From contig CM068763.1 of the NCBI GenBank assembly GCA_035084275.1, forward strand, positions 5,828,001 to 5,892,000: a DNA stretch of 64,000 bases. The letters run 5' to 3'. The notes under the pieces are model-generated. The model was not told the origin of the DNA and did not search any database. It saw only the letters and a list, made by a program, of their open reading frames with translations. This document shows, one piece after another, positions 19,446 to 56,058 of the stretch (position 1 is its first letter; each line of letters opens with the position of its first letter). Both the position numbers and the translations under genes were made by a program. Origin of the DNA: Hydrolagus colliei (Eukaryota).

Positions 19446-19528
19446 AGCAAGTAAGAAATTGGCTGATTAGTGGACTCCTTTTCCAGTGGCATCGTTTTTA
19501 TAGGCAAATTGTTGTTTTTGTTTCTTAG

Positions 19529-22500
19529 GCTCGGGGAACATCAGGAAGAGCTGGTTCCAAAACAGGAGGAGGAACATGTAGACATAGACCTCCTAGATAC
19601 CGTGAGTGAGGGCAGGCTGGCAAATCACTGTGTAATTGACAGGTTGAGGGAGCGGGTGGATTACAGAGCAGCATAGAGAGTGGCGACCAGTAACATCACA
19701 GTCACGTCCAGCGCAGCAACAAGTCCTACCCGTACAGTCCCTGCCACCTGATGCCTCACTTTCAGGAGTCTGGATAACAATTATAATAATCCTTCCATTT
19801 GAAACATTGCTTTATTACGTTATTCAGACTTCTCAAACCTATTCTCCAGTGATACTGTAAACTCTTTCCCCAAATAACCTCAAATAACCTCAGTCAGGTG
19901 TCATTGAGCTGCTGACTGGGAGTGGGGAGATGTCTAAGATCTGAGATAAAATTCACACAAACAGGAGGTGTGAGTACAATCTCTAGATAATTCCCAGCGA
20001 AAGCACACAGCAAACGTGTCTCTCTCACCCTCCTGCAGTGGAGAAGACATCCCAAGTCTCTGGATAGTTAAGGATAGTTAGAATCAAGACAGTTAGTCTG
20101 CAAACATTAATAGCTGCTTTGTATTTCAGGATAAAGAACTCTCTAACCCTCTTGAGGCCAAACGAGGCTCAAGACAACCATCAAGCCAATCCGGTGAGTG
20201 TCAGATCCAGAAACTCAATGAGTTACAGTGTGGCCGGGTTTGGACACTTGTCATTCTCCAGCTGAACCATGCAATGTCTTCAGGCAGACATGTCCGCCAA
20301 CACACAGCTGGCAGTTTCTGTCTCTTATCCAGGTCAACGGCATATCCGTGGAGATGGATGAGGCGAGCAACGAATAAGGTTTTTCGTATGATTCCGCTCT
20401 ACACAAACTCCCCCCAAATTCCATTGCATCGGACACTATCTTTCTGCCTTCACAGTTCTTTGTGAAACAAGTCATTAAAGCAATTCCTTCGGTCACCCTA
20501 CTCAAACACTGCCCTTCCCCCAGCTGCTCGGATCTTGTGTGAAGCTCTTTGAGACTTGAGTCTGTTGTGCGCGGTGTTTATGAGGGCACGTTGTTGTTGT
20601 TTGTTAGGCTAAGCACAAAACAGCTGATAACGGGGGAGAACAAAGTGATAGAGGTGGACATCCCGGAGACAGTGATTGACAGCAGGCCGGTGAGTTGCTG
20701 TTTTTGTCTAATGACACAGGGTAGCAGGGGTATTACATAGCAGCTTACACAGTGGTGATCGCCAACATACACAACAGTATCACGTCAGCATCTGTACATT
20801 CCCAGTCACTTGTCACCTCGCTGTCATAAGTCTGCATCATAATCCTTGTCTTTGATACAATCATGTTTTTGGAACATCTCAAAGCGCTTCACAGGATATA
20901 CTGTAAAGTATAGTGACTATTCTATTGGGAGAAGTGCGGCAGCCAATTTAGGCACAGTGATGTCCCACAAATAGGCAGTGCCTCGGGACTTCCTACTGAA
21001 GTGAAAAGTGCTTTACAAATGTAATTTTCTTGTTATTGGAGTGAGTGACCAATTGTATCTGGGACGTTGTTTGCCAAGGCATCAGGAGAGAAAAATTCCC
21101 TTCTATTTTCAAATTGTACCACAAGATTTATAACGTCAGTTGAAAAGGCAGATGGGAGCTCGGATTAGCATCTCTTCTAGAGAATGCAGCGCCTCCGACA
21201 ATGCAGCACTCAAGTCCCCAGCACTGCACTGATGTGTCAGTTTAAACTCTCTGATTCTAAGTCCTGATGTGGGGCTTCAACCCACAACTTTCTGACAGAT
21301 GCGTGAATCCTTCCACTAAGCCAGGCTGTTAGTGAGTAGCTGAATCTTTCACTTTGTCTTGAGGAAGAACAACAAAAAGAGGAGGAAATCAGGTAATGTA
21401 AAAATGTTTGTGACCCCAGGAGATATGCAGGAGGTGCATGGAGCTCTAGACTGTTTTGAAGCTGATTTTCAGTGACACTGTCTAATCTCTAGCAATTTCT
21501 GTCTCCACAGACATCAGTAGAAGACAGAAGGGAGGAACTCTCCAGGGGTAAGCAAAAGTCTCTGTCCGTTTCACAGTGGGTGTGATCCCCACTCAGTGGC
21601 TCCTCACCCAGTGGGGCAGGGGGTGTCTCTGCCCATCAGCTCAGGGGCTGGAGACTGTACCTGGGAACAGGAATTGCGGCTTCAGATCCCAGCGGATCCC
21701 CTCAGCTTGTCACCCTTTCCAGGGAAGTTGAACCAGCAGCATGTCTGAGAAGGTGGCATCCTGGAGGAGAAAGGGTCTTGTGTTTGCTGAGCTGCCCGGT
21801 CCAAAGGCCTGATCTCACTCCACGTTTCATTCCCCCCTCACTTCCCCCCTCCCCCACCTACACCCCCACCACACCGGAGCCTCATCTCTCATTTTGCTCC
21901 TTAACCTTGTATCCTGCTCGTATCCGAGCGAGACGTTTACGTTTGCAGAACAGTTGGTCTGGCAGGAAGGGCTTGTGTGTGGGAGGGTCATTGTCGACAA
22001 GTCTTTTTGTTTTCCCCCCAGGAGAAGAAGCAGCAGCAGCAAAGGAGAATAAGAAGAGGAAAAGATACAGTGATGCTTTCTCATGATACTCTCTGAGTGA
22101 ATCTCTCTCTCAATCTCTCTTTGACCAGGCCTTCCGCTGCCCTCCTAACTCTCCCCCCTTTCCTACTCTCCTTCCCCTGCCCCTACACCGACCCTTCCGC
22201 CCCCTGCTCGGGTCCCGACCTAACTGTTCAGCGCCTTGGGACGTCCTCCCGACGTGAAAGGCGCTCTAAAAATGTTGTCAGTGACACTCTCTTGGTGACG
22301 CTCTCAGTCGCACACTGAGGCTTATGATGGTGAAGGGCAGAGTTGGCACAGGCTTCAGCCAACATTTATTTACTGAGAAACAAAAACAGAAGTTGCTGGG
22401 AAAACCCAGCAGGTCAAGCAGCATGTATTTTGTGTTTTATTTATTTACTCAGGATCACTGTTGGTTGCTCTCGGTTACCAGGAAGACTGTTGGAGCCCAG

Positions 22501-22726
22501 GGATCGTGGACGTATTGAGGAAATGGCTGGAGCTGTGAGGGGGTTTTGTTCGATGGGAGTCAGAAAGTTTGGGGTGAAATAGGTTGAATGGGCTTGTTAA
22601 TGGACACCTCCCAGTTAATAACCAGCTGTTTCCTGTTTGTACCTCGGACTTATTGATGTTTCCTGTCATACCCACAGGAAATGCTGCTGGTGTTGATTTC
22701 CCTGGAGGAAAAAGGCTGAGGATTGA
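19529..22726 (+). pseudogene. Inverted, 5'-truncated pseudogene of the repeat-protein family, tail-to-tail with copy 1
   Basis: Homologous exons: 19529-19601; 20130-20193 (64 nt, frameshift); 20333-20373 (donor gt>at); 20608-20689; 21364-21392 (29 nt vs 45, frameshift); 21511-21547; 22022-22064 (donor gt>at); 22678-22726 (premature TGA at 22694-22696 inside the CCWCC motif). Confidence 0.8.
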
Positions 22727-24051
22727 AGGCAACAGACAATCCTCTCCTCTCCTCTGGCTGGATCGTGGCTCATCTGATCCTCTTCTCTGTGGATTATATT
22801 ATCGTTGTTATGATTATTATTATCATTCTTATTCATTTTGTTCAATTTTGGTTATGATTTGGTCCCATTTTTACACCTCAAACTCCCCTGAACAGCGGCT
22901 CAGTCCGGCTGCCTGACCTCACTTCCTGACACCCTTTTCATACACGCCAGGGTCAGGTAAGTGTATTTGCATCCTTCAGCTTGATTGTGCTCCCCGCCCT
23001 GTCTGTCTCAGGAACCTAAGCCAAACCCCCCTCATCCCCTCACTCACCCATCCCCTCCCACTTTCCTGTCTCCAATAGCCGTAGATTGAAAACAGTCGTG
23101 GATTGAAATGAGCAATTTTTATTATTGTGTTTTTTTTTGAACGGAATATTATTAGGCGTGTGGAGTAAAGAAACTTGCCCAAGGTTTCGCCCGGATCTGC
23201 TTGGATTTGAACACAGGTTTCACACTTTTAAGACCACAATAATAAGAACTGGTCATTTTCAATTCATGACTGTTTGTGGGACGCTGCTGTGCGCAATTGG
23301 CTGCCGCGTTTAGCCCACAAATATACAGTCAATTAACTTTACAGTATATTCTGTGAAGCGCTTTGAGAAATTGATAAGATCTGAAAAGCGCTATATGAAA
23401 TGCAAGGATAATTATAATAATAATAATAATTATTATTATTATTATAAGGCGAGTGCTGTAACCACTGAGCTACGGTGATATGATGGCCCCCGCGCCTGGA
23501 GCAGCAGGAACTTGTCCTCACCGGTCGCTCACTACTACACGTTGGTTTGGCCGTTGCCTCGGCTTCTCTGGCTCCTTTGTACAGAATGGAGACTTGAAGT
23601 TTCTCACCCCCCAGGGCCCACCCACAGACTATTTCCCCCGGCTTTGGTCGACAATAAACTTCGACCCTCGCTCACTGCTCTCAGTTCCCGCTCGCTCAGT
23701 TTACCCGGGTTTCTCAAGATCTTGCCGGTCACTCAGATCAGGCTTGTTCCACACCTGATGGGACTGAGACCCTCACTGACATATCTAATACATTCTGAGA
23801 TCAACCTGACACCTCAATGTGCCCAACTTCTGGCTTAACAACCTGAGATTGGTTTCTCACCGAGTCGTGGCTGGAGTTCACCCAGACCAAGGTTGTTCCC
23901 CAAGTTCAGAGTCTGGTCACAGATTACCGTCGCTGTTTAATGAGACCAGACTGGAACCTGCGCCCCTCCTCGCTCCGTTCACTCCCCGCAACCACCCAAC
24001 CAGGCGCCACAGTGAAGAGCCCATTCAGAGTTTGTCTCAAAAAAGTTAAGG

Positions 24052-24348: not shown

Positions 24349-27300
24349 TCAATCCTCAGCCCTTTTCCTCCAAGGAAAACAGCACCAGCAGCATTTTCTG
24401 TGGGTTTGAGAGGAAACATCAATGAGTCCCAGGTACAACAGGAAACAGCTGGACATTAACAGGGAGGTGTCGATTAACAAGTCCATTCAACCTATTTCAC
24501 CCCAAATATCTCCCCCTCACAGCACCAGCCGTTTCCTCAATAAGCCTCAGTGTGCAACTGAGAAAGCATCACCATGAGAGTGTCACTGTACCTTTTCTTC
24601 TTCTTCACTTTCTTTTCAGCTGCTGCTGCTCCTGGTGGGAAAGTAAAAAGACTTGTTGACAATGGGCCTCCCACACGCGAGCCATTCCCGCCAGACCAAC
24701 TGTTCTGCAAACCTAAAGGTCTCACTCGGCTACGAGCAGGATTCGAGGATTAGGATCAAAATGATTAAGAGACGAGGCTCGAGTAGAGGAGAGAATGAAA
24801 CGCGGAGTGAGATCAGGCCTTTGGACCGGGCAGCTCAGCAAACACAAAACCCTTTCTCCTCCAGGATGCCACCTTCTCAGACATGCTGCTGGTTCAACTT
24901 CCCTGGAAAGGGTGACAAGCTGAGGGGATCCGCTGGGATCTGAAGCCACAATTCCTGTTCCCAGGTACAGTCTCCAGCCCCTGAGCTGATGGGCAGAGAC
25001 ACCCCCTGCCCCACTGGGTGAGGAGCCACTGAGTGGGGATCACACCCACTGTGAAACGGCCAGAGACTTTTGCTTACCCCTGGAGAGTTCCTCCCTTCTG
25101 TCTTCTACTGATGTCTGTGGAGACAGAAATTGCTAGAGATTAGACAGTGTCATTGAAAATCAGCTTCAAAACAGTCTAGAGCTCCGTGCACCTCCTGCAT
25201 ATCTCCTGGGATCATATCATTTTTTACATTACCTGATCACTCTGTCTCTCCTGTACTTCCTCCTTCGACTGTTCTTCCTAAAGACAAAGTGAAAGCTTCA
25301 GCCACTCGCTCACAGCCTGGCTTAGTGGTACCATTCAGGCACCTGTCACAAAGTTGTGGTTTGAAGCCTTTGATTGTACCAAAGGCAAGGATTATTATGG
25401 TAATCATTATTATCCAGACTTATGACAGCGAGGTGACAAGTGACCGGCAATGTACAGGTGATGACGTGATACTGTCGTGTATGTTAGCGAGCACCACTGT
25501 GTAAGCTGCTATGTAAAACCCCCGCTACCCCGTGCCCTTAGACAAAAACAGTAACTCACTGGCCTGCCGTCAAGCATTGTCTCCGGGACATCCACATGAA
25601 CCTCCTCGTTCTCCCCCGTCAACAGCTCTTCCAGCTTTGTGCTAAGTCTAACAAACAACAATTTTCCCTTAAAAACAATTCTGCTCAGAAACAACCGACT
25701 CGGGTTTCAAGGCACTTCACACAGTTATTGGGAGCTCCGAGCAGCCGGGGGAAGGGCAGGGTTTGAGTAGGGCAACTGAAGGAACTGCTAAAATGACTTG
25801 TTTCTCAAAGAACTGTGAAGGCAGAAAGATAGTGTGCAAAGCAAAGGAATTTGGGGGGAGTTTGCGTAGAGCGGGGACATAGGAAAACCCTTACTTGCTG
25901 CTCGCCTTGTGTGTCTCCAGGGAGATGCTGTTGAGCTGGAGAAGAGACAGAAAGGAAAGGATTAACTGCCGGCTACGCCCTGGAGGACATGTCTGTCTAA
26001 AGACATTGCATGGTTCAGCTGGAGAATATCAAGCATCCAAAGCACCGGTGAAGAGTTTTGAGAAGTCTGAATAACATAATAAAGCAATGTTTCAAATGGG
26101 AGGATTATTATAATTATTATCCAGACTCCTGAAAGCGAGGCGTCAGGTGGTGGGACTTGTTGCTGCGCTGGACGAGACTGTGATGTTACCGGTCGCCACC
26201 ATCTATGCTGCTCTGTAAACCACCCGCTCCCACGACCTGTCAATTACACAGTGACTTGCCAGCCTGCCCTCACTCACGGTATCGTGGAGGTCCATGTCTA
26301 CATGTTCCTCCTCCTGCTCTGGAACCAGCTCTTCCTGATGTTCCTCCAGCCTAAGAAACAACAATAACAATTCGCCTGTGAAAACGATGTCACTCACATT
26401 GTGCTCAGGTCTCAAAGACCTTCACTTACATTCCAGGAGCTATCATCAGCTGGGCAAAGGGCAGGTTTTGCGCAACATTGCCAGGTTCCGCAACTATCTT
26501 ACCCCCCGCGCTGCCGAAACACTTGTGCATGCTTACATCACCTCACGGCTGGATTATGGAAATTCTCTCCTAGTCGGCCTCCCCAATTCCTCCATTCATA
26601 GGCTGCAGGCCATCCAAAACTCTGCAGCCCGTGTACTATCCCGCACCAGCCTCCGTGACCACATAACCCCCACCCTCGCCCGTCTCCACTGGCTCCCCAT
26701 CCTCCAGAGGATCAAGTTTAAGATCCTCGTCCTCACCTACAAGGCCTTACACGGCCTTGCCCCATCCTACCTAACCGATCTACTCTCCCCCTACACGCCC
26801 ACCCGGACCCTCCGTTCAACAGGACTTGGCCTGCTCCAAACCCCCCGCCCGAACCGCCCCACCATCGGAGGCCGGGCCTTCAGTTTCTCCGCTCCCACCT
26901 TATGGAATGCCATCCCTCAATCCCTCCGTTTCGCCTCTTCACTTTCCTCTTTCAAGGCCGATTTGAAGACTTTCCTCTTCGATCGTGCCTTTTGTTCTAC
27001 CCCGAACTCCTTTACCTCCCCTTCGTGTTTCACCCCTTCCCAAACACTCCCCTCCCAGCTCGGGTCACACGCCTCTTGTTCAGCGCCTTGGGACGTCCTC
27101 CCGACGTGAAAGGCGCTCTATAAATGTAATTTGTTGTTGTTGTTGTTGTTTGAGGATAGTGAACAAAGGAATGGCCAAAGTCATTAGATTCTAAGAGAAC
27201 TTTGAAAGAGAAGGTCCAAGGCAGAGGGATTTTGTGCAAAGTGGGAAGATAGAAAAAACCTTACGTGCTCCTTGTCTCATCCCTCTCCTCAGCAAAGCTG

Positions 27301-30300
27301 TTGACCTGGAAAAGAGACAGAAAAGAAAAGGATTAGCTGCCGGTAAGGCACTGGTGGACATGTCTGTCTGAAGACATTGCAGGATTGGGCTGGAGAATGT
27401 CAAGCATCCAAACCCGGCTGCGCTGTAACTCCATGAGTCTCTGGGTCTGACACTCACCAGGTTGGCTTGAGGCTCCTCCTTAGCCTCAGTTGGCCTCTCC
27501 AACTCCTGGTCAGTTGTAGGGAGTTCTTTTTCCTGAAAAGATAGCAGCTGTTAGTGTTTGCAGACTAACTGTCTTCACTCTAACTATCCTTAACTATCCA
27601 GAGACTTGGGATGTCTTCTCCACTGCAGCAGGGTGAGAGAGACACGTTTGCTGTGGGCTTTCGCTGGAAATTTTCTAGAGATTGTACTCACACCTACTGT
27701 TTGTGTGAATATCGTCCTGGATCATATATATCTCCACACTCCCATTCAGGAGCTCAATGAGACCTGACTGAGGTTTAAAATTGAGGAAAGAATTTACAGT
27801 ATCACTGTTGAAGAGGTTTGAGAAAGCTGAATAACATAATAAAGCAATGTTTTAAAAAATGGAAGGATTATTATAATTATTATCCAGACCCCTGAAAGTG
27901 AGGTGCCAGGTGGCAGGGACTGTACGGTGGGACTTGTTGCTGTGCTGGACGTGACTGTGATGTTACCGGTCGCCACCATCTGTGCTGCTCTGTAAACCAC
28001 CCGCTCCCTCAGCCTGTCAATTACACAGTGACTTGCCAGTCCTGGCCTCACTCACGGTATCTATGAGGTCCACATCTACGTGTTCCTCCTCCTGTTTTGG
28101 AACCAGCTCGTTCTGATGTTCCCCGAGCCTAAGAAACAACAACAATTTGACTATAAAAACGATGTCACTAACATTGGACTCAGGTCTCAAAGAGCTTCAC
28201 ACAGATTACGGGAGCTACGAGCAGTCGGGCAAAGATTTGAGGATAGTGAACAAAGGAAAGGCCAAAGTCATTAGATTATGAGAGAACTTTGAAAGAGAAG
28301 GTCCAAGGCAGAGGGATTTTGTGCAGTGGGGAGATAGAAAAAACCTTACGTGCTCCTCGCCTCATCCCTCTCCTCAGTAAAGTTGATGACCTGGAAAAGA
28401 GACAGAAAAGAAAATGATTAGCTGCCGGTAAGTCACTGGTAGACATGTCTGTCTGAAGACATTGCAGGATTCGATTGGAGAATGTCAAGCATCCAAACCC
28501 AGCTGCGCTGTAACTCCATGAGTCTCTGGGTCTGACACTCACCAGGTTGGCTTCAGGTTCCTCCTTAGCCTCAGTTGGCCTCTTCAACTCCTGGTCAGTT
28601 GTAGGGAGTTCTTCATCCTGAAATGCAAAGCAGCTGTTAGTGTTTGCAGACTAACTGTCTTCACTCTAACTATCCTTAACTATCCAGAGACTTGGGATTG
28701 TCTTCTCCACTGCAGCAGGGTGAGAGAGACACGTTTGCTGTGGGCTTTCGCTGGGAATTTTCTAGAGATTGTACTCACACCTCCTGTTTGTGTGAATATC
28801 GTCTTGGATCATATATATCTCCACACTCCCATTCAGGAGCTCAATGACACCTGACTGAGGTTTAAAATTGGGGAAAGAATTTACAGTATCACTGGTGAAG
28901 AGGTTTGAGAAGGCTGAATAACATAATAAAGCAATGTTTTAATAAATGGAAGGATTATTATAATTATTATCCAGACTCCTGAAAGTGAGGTGTCAGGTGG
29001 CAGGGACTGTTCGGTGGGACTTGTTGCTGCGCTGGACGTGACTGTGATGTTACTGGTCGCCACCATCTATGCTGCTCTGTAATCTACCCGCTCCCTCAGC
29101 CTGTCAATCACACAGTGACTTGCCAGTCCTGGCCTCACTCACGGTATCTATGAGGTCCACATCTATGTGTTCCTCCTCCTGTTTTGGAACCAGCTCGTCC
29201 TGATGTTCCCCGAACCTAAGAAACAACAACAATTTTCCTATAAAAACGATGCCACTAACATTGGACTCAGGTCTCAAAGAGCTTCACAGATTCCGGGAGA
29301 TACGAGCAGTCGGGCAAAGATTTGAGGATAGTGAACAAAGGAACGGCCAAAGTCATTAGATTCTGAGAGAACTTTGAAAGAGAAGGTCCAAGGCAGAGGG
29401 ATTTTGTACAAAGTGGGGAGATAGAAAAAACCTTACATGCTCCTCGCTTCATCCCTCTCCACTGCAAAGCTAATGACCTGGAAAAGAGACAGAAAGGAGA
29501 GGATTAGCTGCTGGCAAGGCACTGGTGGACATGTCTGTCTGAAGATATTGCAGGATTGGCCTGGAGAATGTCAAATCTTCAAACCCAGCCACGTTGTGAC
29601 CTGGTGTGTCTAGGTATGACACTCACCACTTCGGCTTGATGCTGGTCTTGATCCTCTTGTGGCATTGCCAATTCAAGGTGAAGAGGAGAAGAGTGTTCTT
29701 CATCCTAAAACACAAAGCAACTGTTATTGTAAGCGGACTTGGTGTCTTGAATCTAACTATCCATAACTGTCCAGAGCATCTCTAAAGCAGCAGAGAGTGT
29801 CTAGTTTGCTGAGCGGTTTCTGTGTGTTTTAGCTGGAAATCAACTGGAAAGTGTAATCCCCTTTTTTTGTGGGACATTGATCAGCCAATGTATCAAATGC
29901 AAACATGACTATTACTTTTATTATTATTATTATTATTATTATTTGTATTGGCTGATTGGAGGGCTTCAAAAGTAGGGATCCCGTGCACCTTTTTAGCATT
30001 ACTGCTTGCTGAGAAAGAAATGGATTGTAATTCAGCCTGGCTCCCAGTCACACATGGTCAGGATCACAGCGATCCTTGCCCACCAGACCACAACAACATC
30101 AAATGATATTTTTGTAGAGCATTTCCTGTCTGGAGGACATCACAATACACGAAAGACAGTGAGCTTCCTATGGGAAATAGTTTACAGTAACTCCGGAGAA
30201 GCACTTTGAGAAATCGGAAAGACATGATAAGTGTATCAAATGGAAGGATTCTAGTTCAAATAATTACTATCCAGACTCCCAATATCAAGATGACAGATGA

Positions 30301-32563
30301 CAGGGATTGTACGAGTGGTACGTGGTGCTGCGCTGGATGTGACTGTTACCAGCGAACACCATCTATACTGCTCTGTAAAATGCCTACTCCCGCGGCCCAT
30401 CAGTTACACAACCACTCGCCCGCCTGCCCTCACTCACGGTCTCTGTGACATCAATCACTTGTGTGACCTCCTTCTCCGGCACCTGGTCTTCCTCTTCCAC
30501 GTTATTCCTGAGCCTAACAAACAACAACAACATAAACACTGCGGCTCTATTGCACTCACGTTCCAAAGAGCTTCACACAGACACCGAGAGTTCGGAGCAG
30601 CCGGGAGACGGGCAGGGTTTGAGGATAGCAAGCAAAGGAACAGCCAAATTGACGAGTTTCTGAGCGAACGTTAAAGGCAGAAAGAGCAGGTCAGAGGCAG
30701 AGGGGTTTGGGGGGAGTTTGTGGAGTGTGGGGACAAAGCAAAAACCTTACTTCTTCCTCGCCTCATCCCTCTCCGCGGCAATGGTCTTGACCTGGAACAG
30801 AGACAGAAGGGAAAGGATCAGCTGCTGGCAAACACACAGCTGCCGTATTTGTCTAAAGACATTGCAGGATTGGGCTGGAAAATGTCAAAGCTACAAACCC
30901 AGCTGCCCTGTAACTCGGTGAGTCTCTGTCTGACACTCACCACTTTGACCTGCTGTTCAAGGGCCTCTTGCGCCATCACCAGCTGCAAGTCGAGCGGCGA
31001 AGAGATGCCTTTTTCCTGAAACACAAAGCAGCTGTTAGTGCGTGTGGACTCAGCACCTTGATGCTAATGATCCTTAACTATTGAGAGCTTTGGGATGTCC
31101 CATCCACTGTAAGGGAATGAGAGGATCTAGTTTCCGGTATTGTTTCTGTGTGTTTTTCCTGGAGATTCACTGGGGATTGTCCTCCCTCCTCCTCCTCCTG
31201 TAGCCTCTCAGATCAGGGAAAACTCCACACTCCCGAGACATTCTTCTGGGTATCCCACTCAGGAACTCAATGCCACCTGAGACACACTTGCCAGCCTCCC
31301 ACTGACTGGGATGGTAGCTGTCAGTGTCCAGCAGTGCATTTGGATCAGGAATTGCCATGTGCTGGATGCCGGAGGGGGAGTCCCAAGTAAAGCTGGGGCT
31401 TATGTATGTGTTCCATTGGCTAGTTCAGTGACCGATGTGGACCCATGTCTCCCAATGACTGTCTCTCATTCACTCCTTGGATGTTTGTGGGACACTGCTG
31501 TACGCAACCGGACGACGTGATCAGCCACTGAACCAAATACAAGGATTATTGTTGTTACCTGGTTGGAGGGGGGGGATAACAAAAATTCCCAGCACCGTGC
31601 AATCATTATTTCTTCTTCCTGAGGAGAAAATAATGGATTGTCATTCAGCCTGGCTCCCAGTCAGGTGGTCAGACACATGGCCCTCCTCACCCAGCAGACC
31701 ACAGCAACAATAAATTACATGACTTTCAAACGCACAAAAGACAGTGAGAATAATTTGGGAAATAGTTTACAGTATCCCTGCTGAAGCGCTTTGAGATGCC
31801 TGAATGACCTGATGAGGCGCTGCATCAAATGGAAGGATTAATATTGTAAGAATTATGATCCATACTCCCCACAGGGAGGAAGGAGATAGGTGAAAGGGAT
31901 TGTACAAATGAGATGTGTTGCTGCGCTGGACGTGACTGGGATGTTACCGGTCACCACTGTCTACGCTATTCTGTAAATTGCCAGCTCCCTCGGTCCGTCA
32001 TTTACACAGTGACTTGCCCGCCTGCTCACTCACGGTCAGTGGGAATGTCATTCGTTGAGATGCTTGTTCCTCCCCTCCTTTTTCAGCATTCTGTTGCCTA
32101 ACAAACAACAACAAATTGCCATGATAAACAAAGATGTTAATATTGGTTTCAAATAACTACACAGATACCGGGAGCACCGAGCAAGGGATGGCTACGGTTT
32201 GAGGAATAAGTGATTAGTTTCTGTGGAGTGTCTAAAGGTAGAAACATAGAGTTTGAGAAAAAGGGATTTGAGTTTGCGGAGTTGTTTCAAAACCTTTACC
32301 TGCTCTTCTCCTCCCTCTCCGCTTCGATGCTCTTGACCTGCAGCAAAGACACAAAGGAGAGGATTAGCTGCTTGCAAGGCCCTGGCGACAATTTCTGCCT
32401 GAAGACATCGCAGGATTGGGCAGGAGAATGTCGAGTCTCCAAACCCGGCTGAGCTGTAACTCACTGAGTCTCTAGGTCTGAAACTCACCAGGTTCGCTTG
32501 GCGCTCCTCTTCCTCCTGAGCCCATGCAAGCGCCAGGTCAAGATTGTCCAGATGCTGTTCTTC
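24349..32563 (-). CDS. Multi-exon gene, copy 1: acidic tandem-repeat protein (>=412 aa, N-terminus unresolved) with C-terminal polybasic/Cys-rich tail
   Basis: Hand-spliced exons in transcription order: 32489-32563, 32300-32337, 32034-32097, 30941-31015, 30751-30791, 30438-30513, 29627-29704, 29437-29477, 29143-29215, 28543-28617, 28350-28390, 28056-28128, 27458-27532, 27265-27305, 26278-26350, 25895-25935, 25560-25647, 25233-25277, 25078-25114, 24592-24631, 24349-24397. All have AG acceptors (several with a CTAAC branch point and pyrimidine tract) and all internal junctions have GT donors (mostly gtgagt/gtaagg). The 1239 nt form one frame: EEQHLDNLDLALAWAQEEEERQANLVKSIEAEREEKSR...DEELPTTDQELKRPTEAKEEPEANLVINFTEERDEARSTLGEHQNELVPKQEEEHVDVDLIDT...TSVEDRREELSRGAAAAEKKVKKKKRKCCWCCFPWRKRAED*. 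Confidence 0.85.
26473..27149 (+). mobile_element. Young 5'-truncated L2 insertion in an intron of copy 1, antisense to the gene
   Basis: Open C-terminal frame LHWLPILQRIKFKILVLTYKALHGLAPSYL and (TTG)n tail. Empty site in copy 2 at ~43685. Confidence 0.93.
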
Positions 32564-33869
32564 CTGAAATACGAAGCTGCTGTTAGTGTGTACGGACTCC
32601 ATGTCTTAACTCAAAGCTGTTCCTCTGCTCAGTGGGCACCGGCCAACTTTGTGTCGCCTGCCCTGCTCTTTATTGATTCAAACCCGCAGCTCAGCCATGG
32701 TTGAAATGGATTGTCTTGAGAAGGGACATGAAGAAGGCAAGACCGTGGGTAAAATGGAGGGATTGTGGGTCAAAACTCCACAATGTGGGGGCAGAGATCT
32801 CAATGCTCGAGAGCTAAGGGTAGGGCAGCAAATACTTTGAACCTGATGTCCACCGAACGGAGGAAGCAGACAGACTGATTTGGGACTAAGACATCAGAGG
32901 AGCAAGAACATGGAAAGCTTTGAAGCTTGGAATGAAGTATTGAATGAGCAGCAGTGAAGACGGGCAAGGATGTGAGGGATCGGTTTGCGGAGCTTGGCAA
33001 CGAATGGGACATGAGCTGCAGAGTTATGAATAATCTGCAGTTTCTAGAGGGAGAGTTGTGAAGTCAAGTGAGCAGGAAGTTGGCAAAGTCAAACATGTCT
33101 CCTGTATGGTGTTTGTGGGAAACCTCTGTGTGCAACTGATTGCCATATTTCGCCCGAAAATACACCGTCACTACACTTCACAGTATATCCTTGACAATGT
33201 GATTGGTGATATTTCAAATTATATTACCTCATTGGATGCATCCGGGAATTTCTCCAAATGCTCCCTCAACGATAGTTTTTCCTGAGAAAGAAATGGATTG
33301 TCATTTAGACTGAATCCACCCCAGTCAGACGGTCAGGCACACGGCCCTCCTCATCCAGCAGACAGTGACAATACTGTGGGAAATGGTTTTAATATTGATT
33401 TTTCCTGATTCTGACCCAGACTCTAATGTCATTCAACAGATCACTGGCCTTGGACATTCCCAGACTGACGGGCTGTGTACATGGGCAGTGAGAGTGCGAG
33501 ATCTCCTGAACTGTGTCTGGGTGTTGGGGTGTGAATATTGACTTATTGACTGGACACTGTACACCCTGCCGCACCCCTTGCTGTGTGTTGGAGGAGCCTC
33601 TCAGATCAGGGAGATCTCCACACTCCCCGGCCACTGTCCTGTGCGTCACAGTCAGGGGCTGAATAACAACTATTTAAATTTGCCGCCATATGTCCCAGAA
33701 TGTGTGTCAGGCCCAGGACATCCTGTGATGGGACTGTCAATAACCTCTCATCTCTTTCCCCCTCCCAAGCCCCGCCCATGCACTCACTTTGGGACGTGGT
33801 TTCTCCTCCTTTGCCTGTGAGCGCTCTGACATGCTGTCTGGCTTGGAAGGCCCAAAGTAAATAGGAGGC

Positions 33870-33992
33870 TTTGTTGTTGTTGTTTTTGTAGCAGTAGTAG
33901 TAGTTGTAGTTGATGTTGTAGTTGATGTTGTAGTTGTTGTAGTTGTTGTAGTTGTTGTAGTTGTTGTTGATGTTGTAGTTGTTGTTGTTGTC
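33870..33992. repeat. Compound (GTT/GTA/GAT)n microsatellite
   Basis: Seen directly; shorter allele at ~50027-50117 in copy 2. Confidence 0.9.
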
Positions 33993-34109
33993 GTCAGTTC
34001 TCTGGCCTCCAGGTTTGTAAGGCTGAAGAGAGATTATAATAATAATGATAATAATCCTGGCTGCTTCCTGTTTCTTCTATTCTTGATGTTGTGCAGTCAC
34101 TGCTTTTAC

Positions 34110-40099: not shown

Positions 40100-41570
40100 A
40101 TTTGGTCCCATTTTTACACCTCAAACTCCCCTAAACAGCGGCTCAGTCCGGCTGCCTGACCTCACTTCCTGACACCCTTTTCATACACGCCAGGGTCAGG
40201 TAAGTGTATTTGCATCCTTCAGCTTGATTGTGCTCCCCGCCCTGTCTGTCTCAGGAACCTAAGCCAAACCCCCCTCATCCCCTCACCCATCCCCTCCCCT
40301 CCCACTTTCCTGTCTCCAATAGCCGTAGATTGAAAACAGTCGTGGATTGAAATGAGCAATTTTTATTATTGTGGGTTTTTTTGCACGGAATATTATTAGG
40401 CGTGTGGAGTAAAGAAACTTGCCCAGGGTTTCGCCCGGATCTGCTTGGATTTGAACACAGGTTTCACACTTTTAAGACCACAATAATAAAAACTGGTCAT
40501 TTTCAATTCATGACTGTTTGTGGGACGCTGCTGTGCGCAATTGGCTGCCGCGTTTAGCCCACAAATATACAGTCAATTAACTTTACAGTATATTCTGTGA
40601 AGCGCTTTGAGAAATTGATAAGATCTGAAAAGCGCTATATCAAATGCAAGGATAATTATAATAATAATAATTATAACCACTGAGCTACGGTGATATGATG
40701 GCCCCCGCGCCTGGAGCAACAGGAACTTGTCCTCACCGGTCGCTCCTACTGCACGTTGGTTTGGCCGTTGCCTCGGCTTCTCTGGCTCCTTTGTACAGAA
40801 TGGAGACAGAATGGAGTTTCTCACCCCCCAGGGCCCACCCACAGACTATTTCCCCCGGCTTTTGTCGACAATAAACTTCGACCCTCGCTCACTGCTCTCA
40901 GTTCCCGCTCGCTCAGTTTACCCGGGTTTCTCAAGATCTTGCCGGTCACTCAGATCAGGCTTGTTCCACACCTGATGGGACTGAGACCCTCACTGACATA
41001 TCTAATACATTCTGAGATCAACCTGACACCTCAATGTGCCCAACTTCTGGCTTAACAACCTGAGATTGGTTTCTCACCGAGTCGTGGCTGGAGTTCACCC
41101 AGACCAAGGTTGTTCCCCAAGTTCAGAGTCTGGTCACAGATTACCGTCGCTGTTTAATGAGGCCAGACTGGAACCCGCGCCCCTCCTCGCTCCGTTCACT
41201 CCCCGCAACCACCCAACCAGGCGCCACAGTGAAGAGCCCATTCAGAGTTTGTCTCAAAAAAGTTAAGGTTTATTATTAATTATACTTTTTACAACAAAAT
41301 GATAATGTAATGATAATATAATATTTGTAATAATGTGAATACATGCAATAATAATATGAAAAGTACAAAATTGTGGAATGAAAATAGTAATAAGAAACAT
41401 AAAACTTAACACTCAATATTAATAATGCAAACTGTAGAAATGTAACTTAATGGAAACTTAACAACAATAACGATAATAATAATATAATAATAAGATGGTC
41501 CTCCAAAGATAGGAGCAGAGGAGCCACAGTCCAGCGAGAGGAGAGGAGAGGAGAGGATTGTCTGTTGCCC

Positions 41571-44500
41571 TCAATCCTCAGCCCTTTTCCTCCAATGAAA
41601 ACAGCACCAGCAGCATTTTCTGTGGGTATGAGAGGAAACATCAATGAGTCCCAGGTAGAACAGGAAACAGCTGGACATTAACAGGGAGGTGTCGATTAAC
41701 AAGTCCATTCAACCTATTTCACCCCAAATATCTCCCCCTCACAGCACCAGCCGTTTCCTCAATAAGCCTCAGTGTGCAACTGAGAAAGCATCACCATGAG
41801 AGTGTCACTGTACCTTTTCTTCTTCTTCACTTTCTTTTCAGCTGCTGCTGCTCCTGGTGGGAAAGTAAAAAGACTTGTTGACAATGACCCTCCCACACGC
41901 GAGCCATTCCCGCCAGACCAACTGTTCTGCAAACCTAAAGGTCTCACTCGGCTACAAGCAGGATTCGAGGATTAGGAGCAAAATGATTGAGAGACGAGGC
42001 TCGAGTGGAGGAGGGAATGAAACGCGGAGTGAGATCAGGCCTTTGGACCGGGCAGCTCAGCAAACACAAGACCCTTTCTCCTCCAGGATGCCACCTTCTC
42101 AGACATGCTGCTGGTTCAACTTCCCTGGAAAGGGTGACAAGCTGAGGGGATCCGCTGGGATCTGAAGCCACAATTCCTGTTCCCAGGTACAGTCTCCAGC
42201 CCCTGAGCTGATGGGCAGAGACACCCCCTGCCCCACTGGGTGAGGAGCCACTGAGTGGGGATCACACCCACTGTGAAACGGACAGAGACTTTTGCTTACC
42301 CCTGGAGAGTTCCTCCCTTTTGTCTTCTACTGATGTCTGTGGAGACAGAAATTGCTAGAGATTAGACAGTGTCATTGAAAATCAGCTTCAAAACAGTCTA
42401 GAGCTCCGTGCACCTCCTGCATATCTCCTGGGATCATATCATTTTTTACATTACCTGATCACTCTGGCTCTCCTGTACTTCCTCCTTCGACTGTTCTTCC
42501 TAAAGACAAAGTGAAAGCTTCAGCCACTCGCTCACAGCCTGGCTTAGTGGTACCATTCAGGCACCTGTCACAAAGTTGTGGTTTGAAGCCTTTGATTGTA
42601 CCAAAGGCAAGGATTATTATGGTAATCATTATTATCCAGACTTATGGCAGCGAGGTGACAAGTGACCGGCAATGTACAGGTGATGACATGATACTGTCGT
42701 GTATGTTAGCGAGCACCACTGTGTAAGCTGCTATGTAAAATCCCCGCTACCCCGTGCCCTTAGACAAAAACAGTAACTCACTGGCCTGCCGTCAATCACT
42801 GTCTCTAGGACATCCACGTGAACCTCTTCGTTCTCCCCCATCAACAGCTCTTCCAGCTTTGTGCTAAGTCGAACAAACAACAATTTTCCCTTAAAAACAA
42901 TTCTGCTCAGAAACAACCGACTCGGGTTTCAAGGCACTTCACACAGTTATTGGGAGCTCCGAGCAGCCGGGGGAATGGCAGGGTTTGAGTAGGGCAACTG
43001 AAGGAACTGCTAAAATGACTTGTTTCTCAAAGAACAGTGAAGGCAGAAAGATAGTGTGCGAAGCAAAGGAATTTGGGGGGAGTTTGCGTAGAGCGGGGAC
43101 ATAGGAAAACCCTTACTTGCTGCTCGCCTTGTGTGTCTCCAGGGAGATGCTGTTGAGCTGGAGAAGAGACAGAAAGGAAAGGATTAACTGCCGGCTACGC
43201 CCTGGAGGACATCTCTGTCTAAAGACATTGCATGGTTCAGCTGGAGAATATCAAGCATCCAAAGCACCGGTGAAGAGTTTTGAGAAGTCTGAATAACATA
43301 ATAAAGCAATGTTTCAAATGGAAGGATTATTATAATTATTATCCAGACTCCTGAAAGCGAGGCGTCAGGTGGTGGGACTTGTTGCTGCGCTGGACGAGAC
43401 TGTGATGTTACCGGTCACCACCATCTATGCTGCTCTGTAAACCACCTGCTCCCTCAACCTGTCAATTACACAGTGACTTGCCAGCCTGCCCTCACTCACG
43501 GTATCGTGGAGGTCCACATCTAAATGTTCTTCCTGCTCTGGAACCAGCTCGTCCTGATGTTCCCCGAGCCTAAGAAACAACAACAACAATTTGCCTATGA
43601 AAAATATGTCACTCACATTGTACTCAGGTCTCAAAGACCTTCACATACATTCCAGGAGCTATCAGCTGCTGGGCAAAGGGCAGGGTTTGAGGACAGTGAA
43701 CAAAGGAACGGCCAAAGTCATTAGATTCTGAGAGAACTTTGAAAGAGAAGGTGCAAGGCAGAGGGATTTTGTGCAAAGTGGGGAGATAGAAAAAACCTTA
43801 CGTGCTCCTCGCCTCATCCCTCTCCTCAGTAAAGCTGATGACCTGGAAAAGAGACAGAAAAGAAAAGGATTAGCTGCCGGTAAGGCACTGGTGGACATGT
43901 CTGTCTGAAGACATTGCAGGATTGGGCTGGAGAATGTCAAGCATCCAAACCCGGCTGCGCTGTAACTCGATGAGTCTCTGGGTCTGACACTCACCAGGTT
44001 GGCTTGAGGCTCCCCCTTAGCCTCGGTTGGCCTCACCAACTGGTCAATTGTTGGGTGTTCTTTATCCTGAAATACAAAGAAGCTGTCAGTGTTTGCAGAC
44101 TAACTGTCTTCACTCTAACTATCCTTAACTATCCAGAGACTTGGGATGTCTTCTCCAATGCAGCAGGGTGAGAGAGACACGTTTGCTGTGTGCGTTTGCT
44201 GGGAATTATCCAGAGATTGCACTCACAACTCCTGTTTGTGTGAATATCGTCTTCGACCATATATCTCTCCACACTCCCAGTCAGGAGCTCAACGAGACCT
44301 GACTGAGGTTTAAAATTTGGGAAAGTATTTACAGTATCACTGGTGAAGAGGTTTGAGAAGTCTGAATAGCGTAATAGAGCAATGTTTCAAATGGAAGGAT
44401 TATAATTATTATCCAGACTCCTGAAAGTGAGGCGTCAGGTGGCAGGGACTGTACGGTGGGACTTGTTGCTGCGCTGGACGTGACTGTGATGTTACCGGTC

Positions 44501-47500
44501 GCCACCATCTATGTGGCTCTGTAAACCACCCGCTCCCTCAGCCTGTCAATTACACAGTGACTTGCCAGCCTGCCCTCACTCACGGTATCTAGGAGGTCCA
44601 CATCTAAATGTTCTTCCTGCTCTGGAACCAGATCGTACTCAGTTGGCCTCTTCAACTCCTGGTCAGTTGTAGGGAGTTCTTTATCCTGAAATGCAAAGCA
44701 GCTGTTAGTGTTTGCAGACTAACTGTCTTCACTCTAACTATCCTTAACTATCCAGAGACTTGGGATTGCCTTCTCCACTGCAGCAGGGTGAGAGAGACAC
44801 GTTTGCTGTGGGCTTTCGCTGGGAATTTTCTAGAGATTGTACTCACACCTCCTGTTTGTGTGAATATCGTCTTGGATCATATATATCTCCACACTCCCAT
44901 TCAGGAGCTCAATGACACCTGACTGAGGTTTAAAATTGGGGAAAGAATTTACAGTATCATTGGTGAAGAGGTTTGAGAAGGCTGAATAACGTAATAAAGC
45001 AATGTTTTAATAAATGGAAGGATTATTATAATTATTATCCAGACTCCTGAAAGTGAGGTGTCAGGTCGCAGGGACTGTACGGTGGGACTTGTTGCTACGC
45101 TGGACGTGACTGTGATGTTACTGGTCGCCACCATCTATGCTGCTCTGTAAACCACCCACTCCCTCAGCCTGTCAATCACACAGTGACTTGCCAGTCCTGG
45201 CCTCACTCACGGTATCTATGAGGTCCACATCTATGTGTTCCTCCTCCTGTTTTGGAACCAGCTCGTCCTGATGTTCCCCGAACCTAAGAAACAACAACAA
45301 TTTTCCTATCAAAACGATGCCACTAACATTGGACTCAGGTCTCAAAGAGCTTCACACAGATTACGGGAGATACGAGCAGTCGGGCAAAGATTTGAGGATA
45401 GTGAACAAAGGAACGGCCAAAGTCATTAGATTCTGAGAGAACTTTGAAAGAGAAGGTCCAAGGCAGAGGGATTTTGTACAAAGTGGGGAGATAGAAAAAA
45501 CCTTACATGCTCCTCGCTTCATCCCTCTCCACCGCAAAGCTAATGACCTGGAAAAGAGACAGAAAGGAGAGAATTAGCTGCTGGCAAGGCACTGGTGGAC
45601 ATGTCTGTCTGAAGATATTGCAGGATTGGCCTGGAGAATGTCAAATCTTCAAACCCAGCCACGTTGTGACCTGGTGTGTCTAGGTATGACACTCACCACT
45701 TCGGCTTGATGCTGGTCTTGAGCCTCTTGTGGCATTGCCAATTCAAGGTGAAGAGGAGAAGAGTGTTCTTCATCCTAAAACACAAAGCAACTGTTATTGT
45801 AAGCGGACTTGGTGTCTTGAATCTATCTATCCATAACTGTCCAGAGCATCTCTAAAGCAGCAGAGAGTGTCTAGTTTGCTGAGCGGTTCCTGTGTGTTTT
45901 AGCTGGAAATCAACTGGAAAGTGTAATCCCCTTTTTTGTGGGACATTGCTGTGCACAGCTGCCTGCAAAGTTTCATCCACGAAATACACTTTATAGTAAC
46001 TCCAATGAAGAGCTGTGAGACGTCTGGGATAACATGATCAGCCAATGTATCAAATGCAAACATGACTATTACTTTTATTATTATTATTATTTGTATTGGC
46101 TGATTGGAGGGCTTCAAAAGTAGGGATCCCGTGCACCTTTTTAGCATTACTGCTTGCTGAGAAAGAAATGGATTGTAATTCAGCCTGGCTCCCAGTCACA
46201 CATGGTCAGGATCACAGCGATCCTTGCCCACCAGACCACAACAACAACATCAAATGATATTTTTGTAGAGCATTTCCTGTCTGGAGGACATCACAATACA
46301 CGAAAGACAGTGAGCTTCCTATGGGAAATAGTTTACAGTAACTCCGGAGAAGCACTTTGAGAAATTGGAAAGACATGATAAGTGCATCAAATGGAAGGAT
46401 TCTAGTTCAAATAATTACTATCCAGACTCCCAATATCAAGATGACAGGGATTGTACGAGTGGTACGTGGTGCTGCGCTGGATGTGACTGTTACCAGCGAA
46501 CACCATCTATACTGCTCTGTAAAATGCCTACTCCCGCGGCCCATCAGTTACACAGCCACTCGCCCGCCTGCCCTCACTCACGGTCTCTGTGACATCAATC
46601 ACTTGTGTGACCTCCTTCTCCGGCACCTGGTCTTCCTCTTCCACGTTATTCCTGAGCCTAACAAACAACAACAACATAAACACTGCGGCTCTATTGCACT
46701 CACGTTCCAAAGGGCTTCACACAGACACCGAGAGTTCCGAGCAGCCGGGAGACGGGTAGGGTTTGAGGATAGCAAGCAAAGGAACAGCCAAATTGATGAG
46801 TTTCTGAGCGAACGTTAAAGGCAGAAAGAGCAGGTCAGAGGCAGAGGGGTTTGGGGGGAGTTTGTGGAGTGTGGGGACAAAGCAAAAACCTTACTTCTTC
46901 CTCGCCTCATCCCTCTCCGCGGTAATGGTCTTGATCTGGAACAGAGACAGAAGGGAAAGGATCAGCTGCTGGCAAACACACAGCTGCCGTATTTGTCTAA
47001 AGACATTGCAGGATTGGGCTGGAAAATGTCAAAGCTACAAACCCAGCTGCCCTGTAACTTGGTGAGTCTCTGTCTGACACTCAACACTTTGGCCTGCTGT
47101 TCAAGGGCCTCTTGCGCCATCACCAGCTGCAAGTCGAGCGGCGAAGAGATGCCTTTTTCCTGAAACACAAAGCAGCTGTTAGTGCGTGTGGACTCAGCAT
47201 CTTGATGCTAATGATCCTTAACTATTGAGAGCTTTGGGATGTCCCATCCACTGTAGGGGAATGAGAGGATCTAGTTTCCTGTATTGTTTATGTGTGTTTT
47301 TCCTGGAGATTCACTGGGGATTGTCCTCCCTCCTCCTCCTCCTGTAGCCTCTCAGATCAGGGAAAACTCCACACTCCCGAGACATTGTTCTGGGTATCCC
47401 AGTCAGGAACTCAATGCCACCTGACACACACTTGCCAGCCTCCCACTGACTGGGATGGTAGCTGTCAGTGTCGAGTAGTGCATTTGGATCAGGAATTGGC

Positions 47501-48706
47501 ATGTGCTGGATGCCGAAGGTGGAGTCCCAAGTAAAGCTGGGGCTTATGTATGTGTTCCATTGGCTAGTTCAGTGACCGATGTGGACCCATGTCTCCCAAT
47601 GACTGTCTCTCATTCACTCCTTGGCTGTTTGTGGGCATTGCTGTACGCAACCGGACGACGTGATCAGCCACTGAACCAAATACAAGGATTATTGTTGTTA
47701 CCTGGTTGGAGGGGGAGGATAACAAAAATTCCCAGCACCGTGCAATCATTATTTCTTCTTCCTGAGGAGAAAAAAATGGATTGTCATTCAGCCTGGCTCC
47801 CAGTCAGGTGGTCAGACACATGGCCCTCTTCACCCAGCAGACCACAGCAACAATAAATTACATGACTTTCAAATGCACAAAAGACAGTGAGAATAATTTG
47901 GGAAATAGTTTACAGTATCCCTGCTGAAGCGCTTTTAGATGCCTGAATGACCTGATGAGGCGCTGCATCAAATGGAAGGATTAATATTATTAGAATTATT
48001 ATCCACACTCCCCACAGCGAGGAAAGAGATAGGTGAAAGGGATTGTACAAATGAGATGTGTTGCTGCGCTGGACGTGACTGGGATGTTACCGGTCACCAC
48101 TGTCTACGCTATTCTGTAAATTGCCAGCTCCCTCGGTCCGTCATTTACACAGTGACTTGCCCGCCTGCTCACTCACGGTCAGTGGGAATGTCATTCGTTG
48201 AGATGCTTGTTCCTCCCCTCCTTTTTCAGCATTCTGTTGCCTAACAAACAACAACAAATTGCCATGATAAACAAAGATGTTAATATTGGTTTCAAATAAC
48301 TACACAGATACCGGGAGCACCGAGTAAGGGATGGCTACGGTTTGAGGAATAAGTGATTAGTTTCTGTGGAGTGTCTAAAGGTAGAAACATAGAGTTTGAG
48401 AAAAAGGGATTTGAGTTTGCGGAGTTGTTTCAAAACCTTTACCTGCTCTTCTCCTCCCTCTCCGCTTCGATGCTCTTGACCTGCAGCAAAGACACAAAGG
48501 AGAGGATTAGCTGCTTGCAAGGCCCTGGCGACAATTTCTCCCTGAAGACATCGCAGGATTGGGCAGGAGAATGTCGAGTCTCCAAACCCGGCTGAGCTGT
48601 AACTCACTGAGTCTCTAGGTCTGAAACTCACCAGGTTCGCTTGGCGCTCCTCTTCCTCCTGAGCCCATGCAAGCGCCAGGTCAAGATTGTCCAGATGCTG
48701 TTCTTC
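41571..48706 (-). CDS. Multi-exon gene, copy 2 of the repeat-protein family (two splice-site changes; possibly an altered isoform or an early pseudogene)
   Basis: Exons 48632-48706, 48443-48480, 48177-48240, 47085-47159 (donor GT>TT at 47084), 46895-46935, 46582-46657, 45697-45774, 45507-45547, 45211-45283, 44584-44685 (fused exon), 43995-44066, 43802-43842, 43500-43569, 43117-43157, 42782-42863 (shifted acceptor), 42455-42499, 42300-42336, 41814-41853, 41571-41619. All exon-length changes versus copy 1 are multiples of 3. Ends KCCWCCFHWRKRAED*. Confidence 0.72.
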
Positions 48707-54600: not shown

Positions 54601-55486
54601 GGCGAGGTGGGGTGGACAGAGGAGATGGTTGGTGGTGGCAACAGCCGAACCAACATACGTGCGGTGGTGAGCGACTGGCGAGGACAAGTTTCTGCTGCTC
54701 CAGGCACGAGGACTGTCACATCAATCTCCCCTGAACAACGGCTCAGTCTGATTGCCTGACCTCACTTCCTGATGCCCTTTTCATACACGCCAGGCTCAGG
54801 TAAGTGTATTTACATCCTTCTGCTTGCTTGTGTTCCCTGCCCTGTCTGTCTCAGAAACCTAAGCCACATCCCTCCCAATCACCCCTCATCCCCCCCTTCA
54901 CCCACCCTCTACCACTATCCTGTCTCCTGTAGCCCACGGGCTGAGGCTGCCACACTGATCTGTAACTCCCGGTCTCTGCAAGTGCGTTTTGTCTGTTGCC
55001 CCAATCTAAATCGCTCCCCAACCAAAATGTTCCTCCGATCACTGCCTGTCACCTGCCTACCTGTCCGACCTCCTGTCCGACCGTAGTTTGTGAGGAACGA
55101 GTGAAGGAGTGAGAGGTGGCTACTCTCGGACAGCCAGCGCCTGGATCCACGATGGGCCCGGTGGAGGATGCCCAGACTGGAGAAGAGGGAAGTGGTGATG
55201 CGTCGTGGAGATTGACAAGGTGGGAGCAGTGGGAGATAAGGACAGAGTGAGAGTAGGGGATAGAAGGGGGTGGGAGGAGAGACATTTAGATTGGAGGTGG
55301 AGGCTCGGGTCGAGGCGGCAGCCAAACGCGCACACAGTCTACTGACAGTAAGGTAACAGGTGACAGGGAGTGTACTGATGGGATGCAGTGCTGCCCTTTA
55401 CGTTACCAGTTACCAACATCTACACTGCCCTGTAAAAGACCAACTCCCTCGGCCTTTCAGTGACTCGACCGCCTGCCCTCACTTAC

Positions 55487-56058
55487 TGCCTCGATGATGT
55501 CCACTTTTATGACTTCTTCCACCACTGGTACCAAAGATTCCTCGATGTTCTTAACAAAGAACAAGAACAATTTGCTATTATGAATGATTTTGTTCACATT
55601 GGACTCGGGTCTGAAAGATTTTAACATATAAAACGGGAGCTCCGAGCAGCTGGTGGATCGGCAGGTTTTGAGGATGGCGTCCAAAAAATAGCCAAAGTGA
55701 TTAGTTTCTGAGTGAACTTTGAAGGCAGAAAGAGAAGGTCCGAGGCGAGAGGATTTGGTGTGTGTTTGTGGAGAGTGGGGACACAGCAAAAGCCTTTCTT
55801 GATAGTCGCCTCTTCCCTCTCGGCGTCGATGTTGACCTGGAAAAGAGACAGAAGGGAGAAGATTAGCTGCCAGCAAGGACCCATGTCTGTCTAAAGACAT
55901 TGCAGGATTGGGCTGGAGGATGTCAAGTCTCCAAACTTGGCTGCACTGTAACTCTATGAGTCTCTGGGTCTGACAGTCACCAGGTTGGCTTGAGGCTCCT
56001 CCTTAGCCTCTTGTGGTATCACCATCTCCAGTTCGAGAGGGGAAGGGAGTCCATTGTC
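55487..56058 (-). pseudogene. Divergent relic three-exon cassette of the same family
   Basis: Exon a 55981-56058 (DNGLPSPLELEMVIPQEAKEEPQANL). Exon b 55799-55836 (VNIDAEREEATI) has its donor changed to gaaagg. Exon c ends at 55487 and has a degenerate acceptor. Intron sequences are homologous to the other cassettes. Confidence 0.7.

Follow-up and report, generated by a model that had tools for sequence, protein, structure and literature searches.

Organization of gene A

The stretch examined here (in the following, the window) comprises 64,000 nucleotides (nt) of the genome of Hydrolagus colliei (contig CM068763.1 of assembly GCA_035084275.1, positions 5,828,001 to 5,892,000) and contains on its minus strand a predicted gene, called gene A, whose middle part consists of repeated groups of exons. 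Its members were placed by a splice-site scan and by profile searches, and all positions are window coordinates. Joined by their coordinates, the 24 exons form an open frame of 465 codons that begins with an ATG at position 33832 and ends in a stop near 24351, and all splice dinucleotides of the 23 introns (46/46) are canonical. The features of gene A, in the direction of transcription, are:

33833..34023, minus: upstream part of the probable first exon, (ACA/ACT)n tract; 5' untranslated region or N-terminal extension
33788..33832, minus: probable first coding segment of the same exon, starting with the ATG at 33832 (with A at -3) and ending in a phase 0 donor; identical in copy B
33228..33281, minus: exon d0, 54 nt, phase 0-0
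32489..32563, minus: exon a1, 75 nt, phase 0-0
32300..32337, minus: exon b1, 38 nt, phase 0-2
32034..32097, minus: exon c1, 64 nt, phase 2-0
31559..31618, minus: exon d1, 60 nt, phase 0-0
30941..31015, minus: exon a2, 75 nt
30751..30791, minus: exon b2, 41 nt
30438..30513, minus: exon c2, 76 nt
29950..30008, minus: d2 remnant, ends approximate; acceptor retained, donor gone in copies A, B and C
29627..29704, minus: exon a3, 78 nt, old type
29437..29477, minus: exon b3, 41 nt
29143..29215, minus: exon c3, 73 nt, young type
28543..28617, minus: exon a4, 75 nt
28350..28390, minus: exon b4, 41 nt
28056..28128, minus: exon c4, 73 nt
27458..27532, minus: exon a5, 75 nt
27265..27305, minus: exon b5, 41 nt
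26470..27120, plus: 3' fragment of a long interspersed nuclear element (LINE) in the b5-c5 intron, ends approximate; in A and C, not in B
26278..26350, minus: exon c5, 73 nt
25895..25935, minus: exon b6, 41 nt; a6 deleted upstream
25560..25647, minus: exon c6, 88 nt; in B and C, an AG in frame lies 6 nt further in
25233..25277, minus: exon e, 45 nt, phase 0-0; homology to d not shown
25078..25114, minus: exon f, 37 nt, phase 0-1
24592..24631, minus: exon g, 40 nt, phase 1-2; Ala run, then Lys run
24349..24397, minus: last coding exon h with CCWCC motif, basic residues and stop; AATAAA at 24057

In every repeated unit, or cassette, exon a (75-78 nt) has phase 0-0, exon b (38-41 nt) phase 0-2 and exon c (64-88 nt) phase 2-0, such that start and end phase are both 0 in all five complete units and in b6+c6. 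The complete units encode 59, 64, 64, 63 and 63 amino acids (aa), each of their exon boundaries is AG..GT, and the introns align between cassettes, i.e., they were duplicated along with the exons. A preliminary description of this DNA, drawn from its letters, had placed the repeat at 25560..32563 with these exon lengths and phases, 59-64 aa per unit and homologous introns, and attributed its growth to duplication of a phase-symmetric multi-exon unit. Both ends are exact (a1 starts at 32563 and c6 ends at 25560, on the minus strand), lengths and phases agree to the base, and the mode of growth is supported.

Three other points of that description need to be amended. Of the six cassettes it counted, all six b+c positions exist, but no more than five have all three exons; number six lacks exon a because a deletion with its junction near 26042 took it away, and a6 is still present in the inverted copy D (see below). 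The group of three young cassettes (26278-29704) includes one old/young chimera, as c3 differs by 4% from c4, whereas a3 is of the old type and differs by 33-36% from a4 and a5. Finally, exons a, b and c are as described, but a fourth repeated exon, d (phase 0-0), had been omitted. It precedes units 1 and 2, is reduced to a donor-less remnant ahead of unit 3 and is missing ahead of units 4-6, and we therefore infer that the older unit was probably d-a-b-c, from which the three-exon unit would be derived. Concerning the exons downstream of the array, in a shuffle test for e-to-d and f-to-b homology exon e matched b exons equally well and f was no outlier. The c6 donor lies 18 nt past its ancestral position. 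Tandem Repeats Finder (TRF) did not detect the cassette, the period of which exceeds that program's limit of 500. The LINE fragment in the b5-c5 intron is presumably of L2 type.

Copies of the gene

Self-comparison shows gene A to be tandemly repeated in blocks of 96-98.5% identity (A, 22855-38763; B, 40098-52618; C, 56964-64000), the whole-gene duplication blocks being 16-17 kb long. Block C is cut off by the end of the window, and the cluster runs on past it. Besides gene A, the window contains:

41569..49987, minus: copy B gene; a2 donor changed from GT to TT, fused a4/c exon, no LINE insert
57382..63909, minus: copy C gene; frame open from b2 to the stop, layout as in A
19485..22833, plus: copy D, inverted 3' part, decayed
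54700..56700, minus: copy E, ends approximate; an old fragment comprising exons b, a, b and c, in which one donor is gone

In unit 4 of copy B, 562 nt have collapsed to a single in-frame a/c exon of 102 nt (44685-44584), which ends in a c of the unit-5 type. In this copy the phase-symmetric exon a2 has lost its donor as well; skipping of a2 would leave a protein of about 407 aa, compared with 465 aa in A. Of the 121 splice dinucleotides in A, B and C together, 118 are canonical; the exceptions, all frame-neutral, are the a2 donor of B and, in both B and C, the acceptor of c6, where an in-frame AG follows 6 nt on. A poly(A) signal is present in all three. Copy D has two dead donors, exons a and e of frameshifting lengths (64 and 29 nt) and a stop in the Cys motif. 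For copy E, profile searches of the window found no 3' exons.

As the gene is present in tandem copies, cassette number could in part be compared inside the window, and the same six cassette positions occur in the near-intact copies A, B and C. It had been proposed beforehand that whole cassettes, exon a alone or b+c can be added, dropped or skipped with the frame kept, as in an accordion of tunable length. The deletion of a6 and of d (units 4-6), the dead donor of d in unit 3 and the lost a2 donor in B are such frame-neutral changes, but a loss of b+c alone was not seen. The accordion thus holds over evolutionary time, except that the largest change in length, that of copy B, arose by deletion within exons a and c, which kept the frame but makes no use of phase symmetry. 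As to phase-symmetric multi-exon duplication in general, unit content differs among paralogues (A and C vs B vs D).

Exchange between units

Exon b3 of copy C differs by 2.4% from B5, compared with 12.2% from its orthologue A3, and c5 of copy C by 1.4% from B5 and 11.4% from A5, although C possesses the b5 and the LINE of A. Of the 903 pairs formed by 43 informative sites, 83 are incompatible, and the local incompatibility (0.040 vs 0.092) was equalled in only 5 of 5000 permutations. The units are recombinant mosaics, which would be due to unequal crossing-over and conversion between units and copies. Exon f is identical between A and D (25078-25114 and 21511-21547; 0/37), with neighbouring exons 22-27% different; possibly it represents a conversion tract or a constrained motif.

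Conservation of frame and splice sites

In 13 intact units, the lengths of all eight exon indels are multiples of three, compared with 3 of 26 intron indels (Fisher p 9e-6). Copies D and E are a weak control for this bias, because five of their six exon indels are multiples of three as well. Relative rates over 11 units are 0.50 for splice flanks, 0.91 for intron cores and 1.51 for exons (98, 511 and 189 columns, respectively), and splice flanks changed 12 times on E vs twice on A2. Between units, exon sites differ by 35-45%, although the frame and the 46 splice sites are intact. Frame and splicing are conserved, residues loosely, and an omega of 0.44-0.60 in three sets of units likewise speaks for selection on the frame. 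A chance origin of the exon chain is set aside by the open frame, the canonical sites, the exon-indel bias and the slow splice flanks taken together.

Divergence of exons and introns

Between A and D, exons differ at 58 of 353 sites and introns at 133 of 1408 (p 4e-4). Base composition and CpG do not suffice as a cause, the observed value exceeding the expected one in 7/7 pairs. Neither does selection on amino acids account for the fast exons, since pS (0.255, synonymous sites) is higher than pN (0.139, nonsynonymous sites) in this comparison and, of the 14 codons that changed on the intact branch, 7 still encode the same residue. The data suggest that introns are slow rather than exons fast, because three other classes of sites are all more diverged than the introns: the LINE insert (A-C, 21/587 non-CpG sites vs 59/4563 in native introns, p 2e-4), the far flank (A-B, 32/1684 vs 17/2439 in array introns, p 6e-4) and synonymous sites (A-D, p 4e-5). 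Four results run counter to this. The nearer 3' flank (A-B) differs at only 16/1325 sites, and the exon excess between A and C is by itself not significant (p 0.24). When differences within 3 nt are merged, which is conservative at high divergence, the ratios are 1.2-2.9 and significant in one of five pairs. Polarised A6-D counts on the intact branch (exons 16:7 vs introns 18:26, p 0.04) reveal an exon excess that homogenisation of introns alone does not predict.

The likeliest causes are conversion tolerated in introns or splicing constraint around the 38-41 nt exons. It appears unlikely that the introns are kept some 2.5-fold below neutral divergence and serve as recombination handles by which acidic modules move between cassettes and gene copies, with the splicing of symmetric exons setting the length of a lipid-anchored polyanionic spacer, such that length would be selected and tunable both in the DNA and in the RNA. 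Similar patterns are reported for SSSGP genes of a midge (PMC2955719) and for spidroin genes (PMC9779670).

Predicted protein

The predicted protein of gene A has 465 aa, about 394 of which come from a-d exons, with 21% Glu, a pI of 4.48 and a net charge of -69, and the charge-hydropathy criterion predicts it to be disordered. No transmembrane segment was found in it (highest 19-residue hydropathy 0.54). At the C-terminus, 11 of the last 25 residues are K or R, and four of the five Cys form the motif CCWCC at 452-456. A Cys cluster beside basic residues in a protein with no transmembrane segment is the combination that characterises S-acylated peripheral proteins. By this analogy, the product is likeliest to be a cytosolic polyanionic, membrane-tethered spacer or scaffold. 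SNAP25/23 are likewise soluble and have basic residues adjoining four cysteines, and there these residues are reported to make the first membrane contact before palmitoylation (PMC5362264); the Cys cluster is, however, central in SNAP25 and terminal in gene A, and Pfam revealed no SNARE motif in the 12 exons searched.

Homology searches were made with exon-sized queries. Against Pfam, 12 exons all failed to give a match at E<=5 (queries of 20-29 aa, of low power), and a mixed-exon alignment search gave 3409 candidates, none at E<=10. A search with the tail read through yielded one candidate, which was not accepted, and a 28-position profile had no match among 1.84 billion representatives. An atlas search, run twice, returned no usable match and profile searches of PDB nothing relevant. 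A literature search, supplements aside, found no description of the gene A family.

Several known families were considered. The c exons show some resemblance to calpastatin, in letters that the old units lack; a calpain-inhibitor domain was not matched in Pfam, and the a, c and mixed profiles retrieved 0, 1 (unrelated) and 0 PDB sequences, respectively (E<=10; short queries). A presumed resemblance of exon a1 to the ubiquitin-binding UIM/MIU repeats does not hold, as 0/5 a exons match the UIM profile and the pattern is lost in a4 and a5. Acidic SCPP genes have a signal peptide and introns all of phase 0, whereas introns of phase 1 and 2 occur here and an in-frame signal peptide is lacking. The introns contain no known RNA family at gathering score (four chance-level matches, E 1.5-4.6), and a host gene for snoRNA or microRNA was rejected on this basis.

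Comparison with other repeat systems

Olduvai domains, as found in NBPF genes, measure about 65 aa and are acidic and disordered; DAZ repeats and LPA KIV-2 are further analogues. Gene A is no member of NBPF/Olduvai, as none of the 12 exons matched DUF1220 and its units have three or four exons, not two. PMC5556342 describes multi-exon units with introns, an intragenic number that varies among paralogues and hybrid domains, all of which recur here, but Olduvai has two exons per domain and triplet expansion and is mammalian, and gene A has a basic Cys tail. The likeness is one of analogy only. The four-exon block of nebulin (PMC1553488) and the segmental duplications of titin and nebulin (PMC9142044) work alike; these are giant, conserved, single-copy genes, whereas gene A is a small orphan and itself tandemly duplicated.

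Concerning the Argiope spidroins MaSp2 and Flag, PMC9779670 describes repeated exon-intron units, alternating homologous introns, clustered paralogues and intergenic conversion. Spidroins are, however, secreted fibre proteins with introns 94-99.7% alike within a gene (ibid.), and the units of gene A are far more divergent (intron cores 3-34%). The SSSGP genes of the Hessian fly share with gene A tandem and inverted copies and non-coding sequence more conserved than coding sequence, a difference in conservation put down there partly to short conversion tracts (PMC2955719); strong positive selection prevails in the fly genes, in contrast to an omega below 1 in gene A. The mechanism is known from NBPF/Olduvai, nebulin, titin and spidroins; the gene family is apparently undescribed and unnamed.

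Interpretation

With a probability of about 0.6, we consider gene A a functional, lineage-restricted vertebrate gene formed by nested duplication at two scales and coding for a membrane-tethered acidic spacer. As the sequence shows, the unit d-a-b-c (phases 0-0, 0-0, 0-2 and 2-0) was duplicated with its introns inside the gene, the most recent expansion was that of a three-exon derivative lacking d (about 1.09 kb), and the whole gene was then duplicated in the large blocks. Homologous units continue to exchange, fuse and delete modules by unequal crossing-over and gene conversion. Selection holds splice sites and frame but residues only loosely, and paralogues consequently differ in length. 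The product would be a cytosolic, acidic, disordered chain held at the membrane by its basic patch and an S-acylated CCWCC, with repeats that presumably act as charged spacer or low-affinity scaffold, exact length being tolerated and not finely tuned.

A number of points weigh against this interpretation. Copies A, B and C are 1-4% apart and not independent, because they share ancestry, such that counts over them overstate the evidence, and some copies could be allelic haplotypes merged by the assembly. Omega departs from 1 weakly, namely 0.60 in the young set of five units (twice the log-likelihood difference, 2dlnL, 1.8 vs omega 1, not significant), 0.44 in eight units (b+c; 2dlnL 4.4) and 0.585 in 11 units (2dlnL 7.0), all values being approximate, as the tree model does not hold under recombination. 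Nor is the tail invariant: A and D differ at 9 of 40 sites of exon g, and exon h of B has P>H. The 5' end of gene A is uncertain, palmitoylation of CCWCC is assumed by analogy only, and no homologue of the protein was found with exon-sized queries, a weak null that makes a distant family possible, because every query was one exon long.

Among the alternatives, we would grant some plausibility to an accordion still in use, in which the skipping of cassettes, of a alone or of b+c is regulated or individuals vary in them, and length is selected, as in the PEVK part of titin. Exon phases permit skipping, all lesions in near-intact copies are frame-neutral, and purines make up 64% of the small exons, compared with 48% of the introns. 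However, the six positions are unchanged in A, B and C, copy B was shortened within exons, where the frame would survive in one of three cases by chance or else through selection, and phase symmetry is no proof of tuning, because any surviving tandem exon duplication needs it. The chief rival to the membrane tether, which we hold to be rather unlikely, is a nuclear role in which the Lys run is a nuclear localization signal and histones or protamines are the partners of the acidic chain, perhaps in germ cells, after the model of prothymosin and nucleoplasmin. The strong negative charge with a basic tail and the tandem, fast-evolving family would suit it, and in a variant the Cys cluster could switch the protein between membrane and nucleus; by itself it leaves unexplained why the extreme C-terminus has four Cys together with Trp and Phe, and none of the 12 exons searched has a Pfam match to go with it.

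Diversifying selection on residues, as in an arms-race gene, would explain the rate of the exons compared with that of introns, their excess between A and D and that on the intact branch. It is unlikely in view of an omega below 1 in all three sets, the relation of pS to pN, the silent half of the changed codons and the single significant pair after merging. Less likely still is that the protein is secreted or mucin-like, cross-linked through its Cys and bearing a Thr stalk at the N-terminus. The (ACA/ACT)n tract is in frame with the ATG as a Thr/Ser run, open for 67 codons in A and for 57 in B (49988-50150, 30 nt shorter), and neither of the two point differences that separate A from B changes a residue of this run; yet a CAA-type repeat is stop-free in any frame, no in-frame start or signal peptide was found upstream of the ATG at 33832, and a leader-like frame upstream contains TGA in both copies and is in the wrong phase. 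Least probable is a non-functional degenerate repeat or pseudogene cluster: the missing homologues, the dead copies D and E and the lost donor in B agree with it, but frame and splice sites have stayed intact despite the divergence of exon sites, and the indel bias would not be expected.

As the mechanism is already established, these findings leave theory unchanged. The locus is a compact natural experiment, in which intact, lesioned and dead paralogues stand side by side and unit turnover is recorded stepwise, and the comparison of paralogues indicates that surviving lesions are frame-neutral. It also points to an apparently unannotated gene family masked from standard searches by its short exons, and to a pattern without explanation, synonymous sites being more diverged than adjacent introns, which is testable with more copies.

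Adjacent sequences

In positions 1-19450, which include an assembly gap of 201 N (10261-10461), no host gene was recognised among 122 frames with five weak Pfam matches. The sole match at the cut-off, a TB domain, is actually a TG microsatellite. Gene A has no synteny anchor, because no neighbouring gene was identified there.

Upstream of gene A, a promoter-like block (34110-34300) contains a short upstream frame ending in TGA, a donor at 34110 and TGAGTCA, ATTGG and GC-box-like motifs. Over about 300 nt it is the same in A and B and is locally duplicated in A; the block repeats at 35132-35393 and 50280-50541. The junction between A and B has a private sequence of 1.3 kb (38764-40097) with G-rich inverted ends and thereby resembles a non-autonomous DNA transposon. 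Rfam matches to tRNA at 37115-37186 and 50956-51027, in orthologous positions, are probably heads of a tRNA-derived short interspersed nuclear element. Remnants of LINE reverse transcriptase lie at 35512-36873 and 53153-54367, the first upstream of A and not of B. Among the 120 matches listed for its frame at 35515-36120, sharks are the top named vertebrates (66%), which points to a cartilaginous fish as host, and most turtle entries reach 59-60%.

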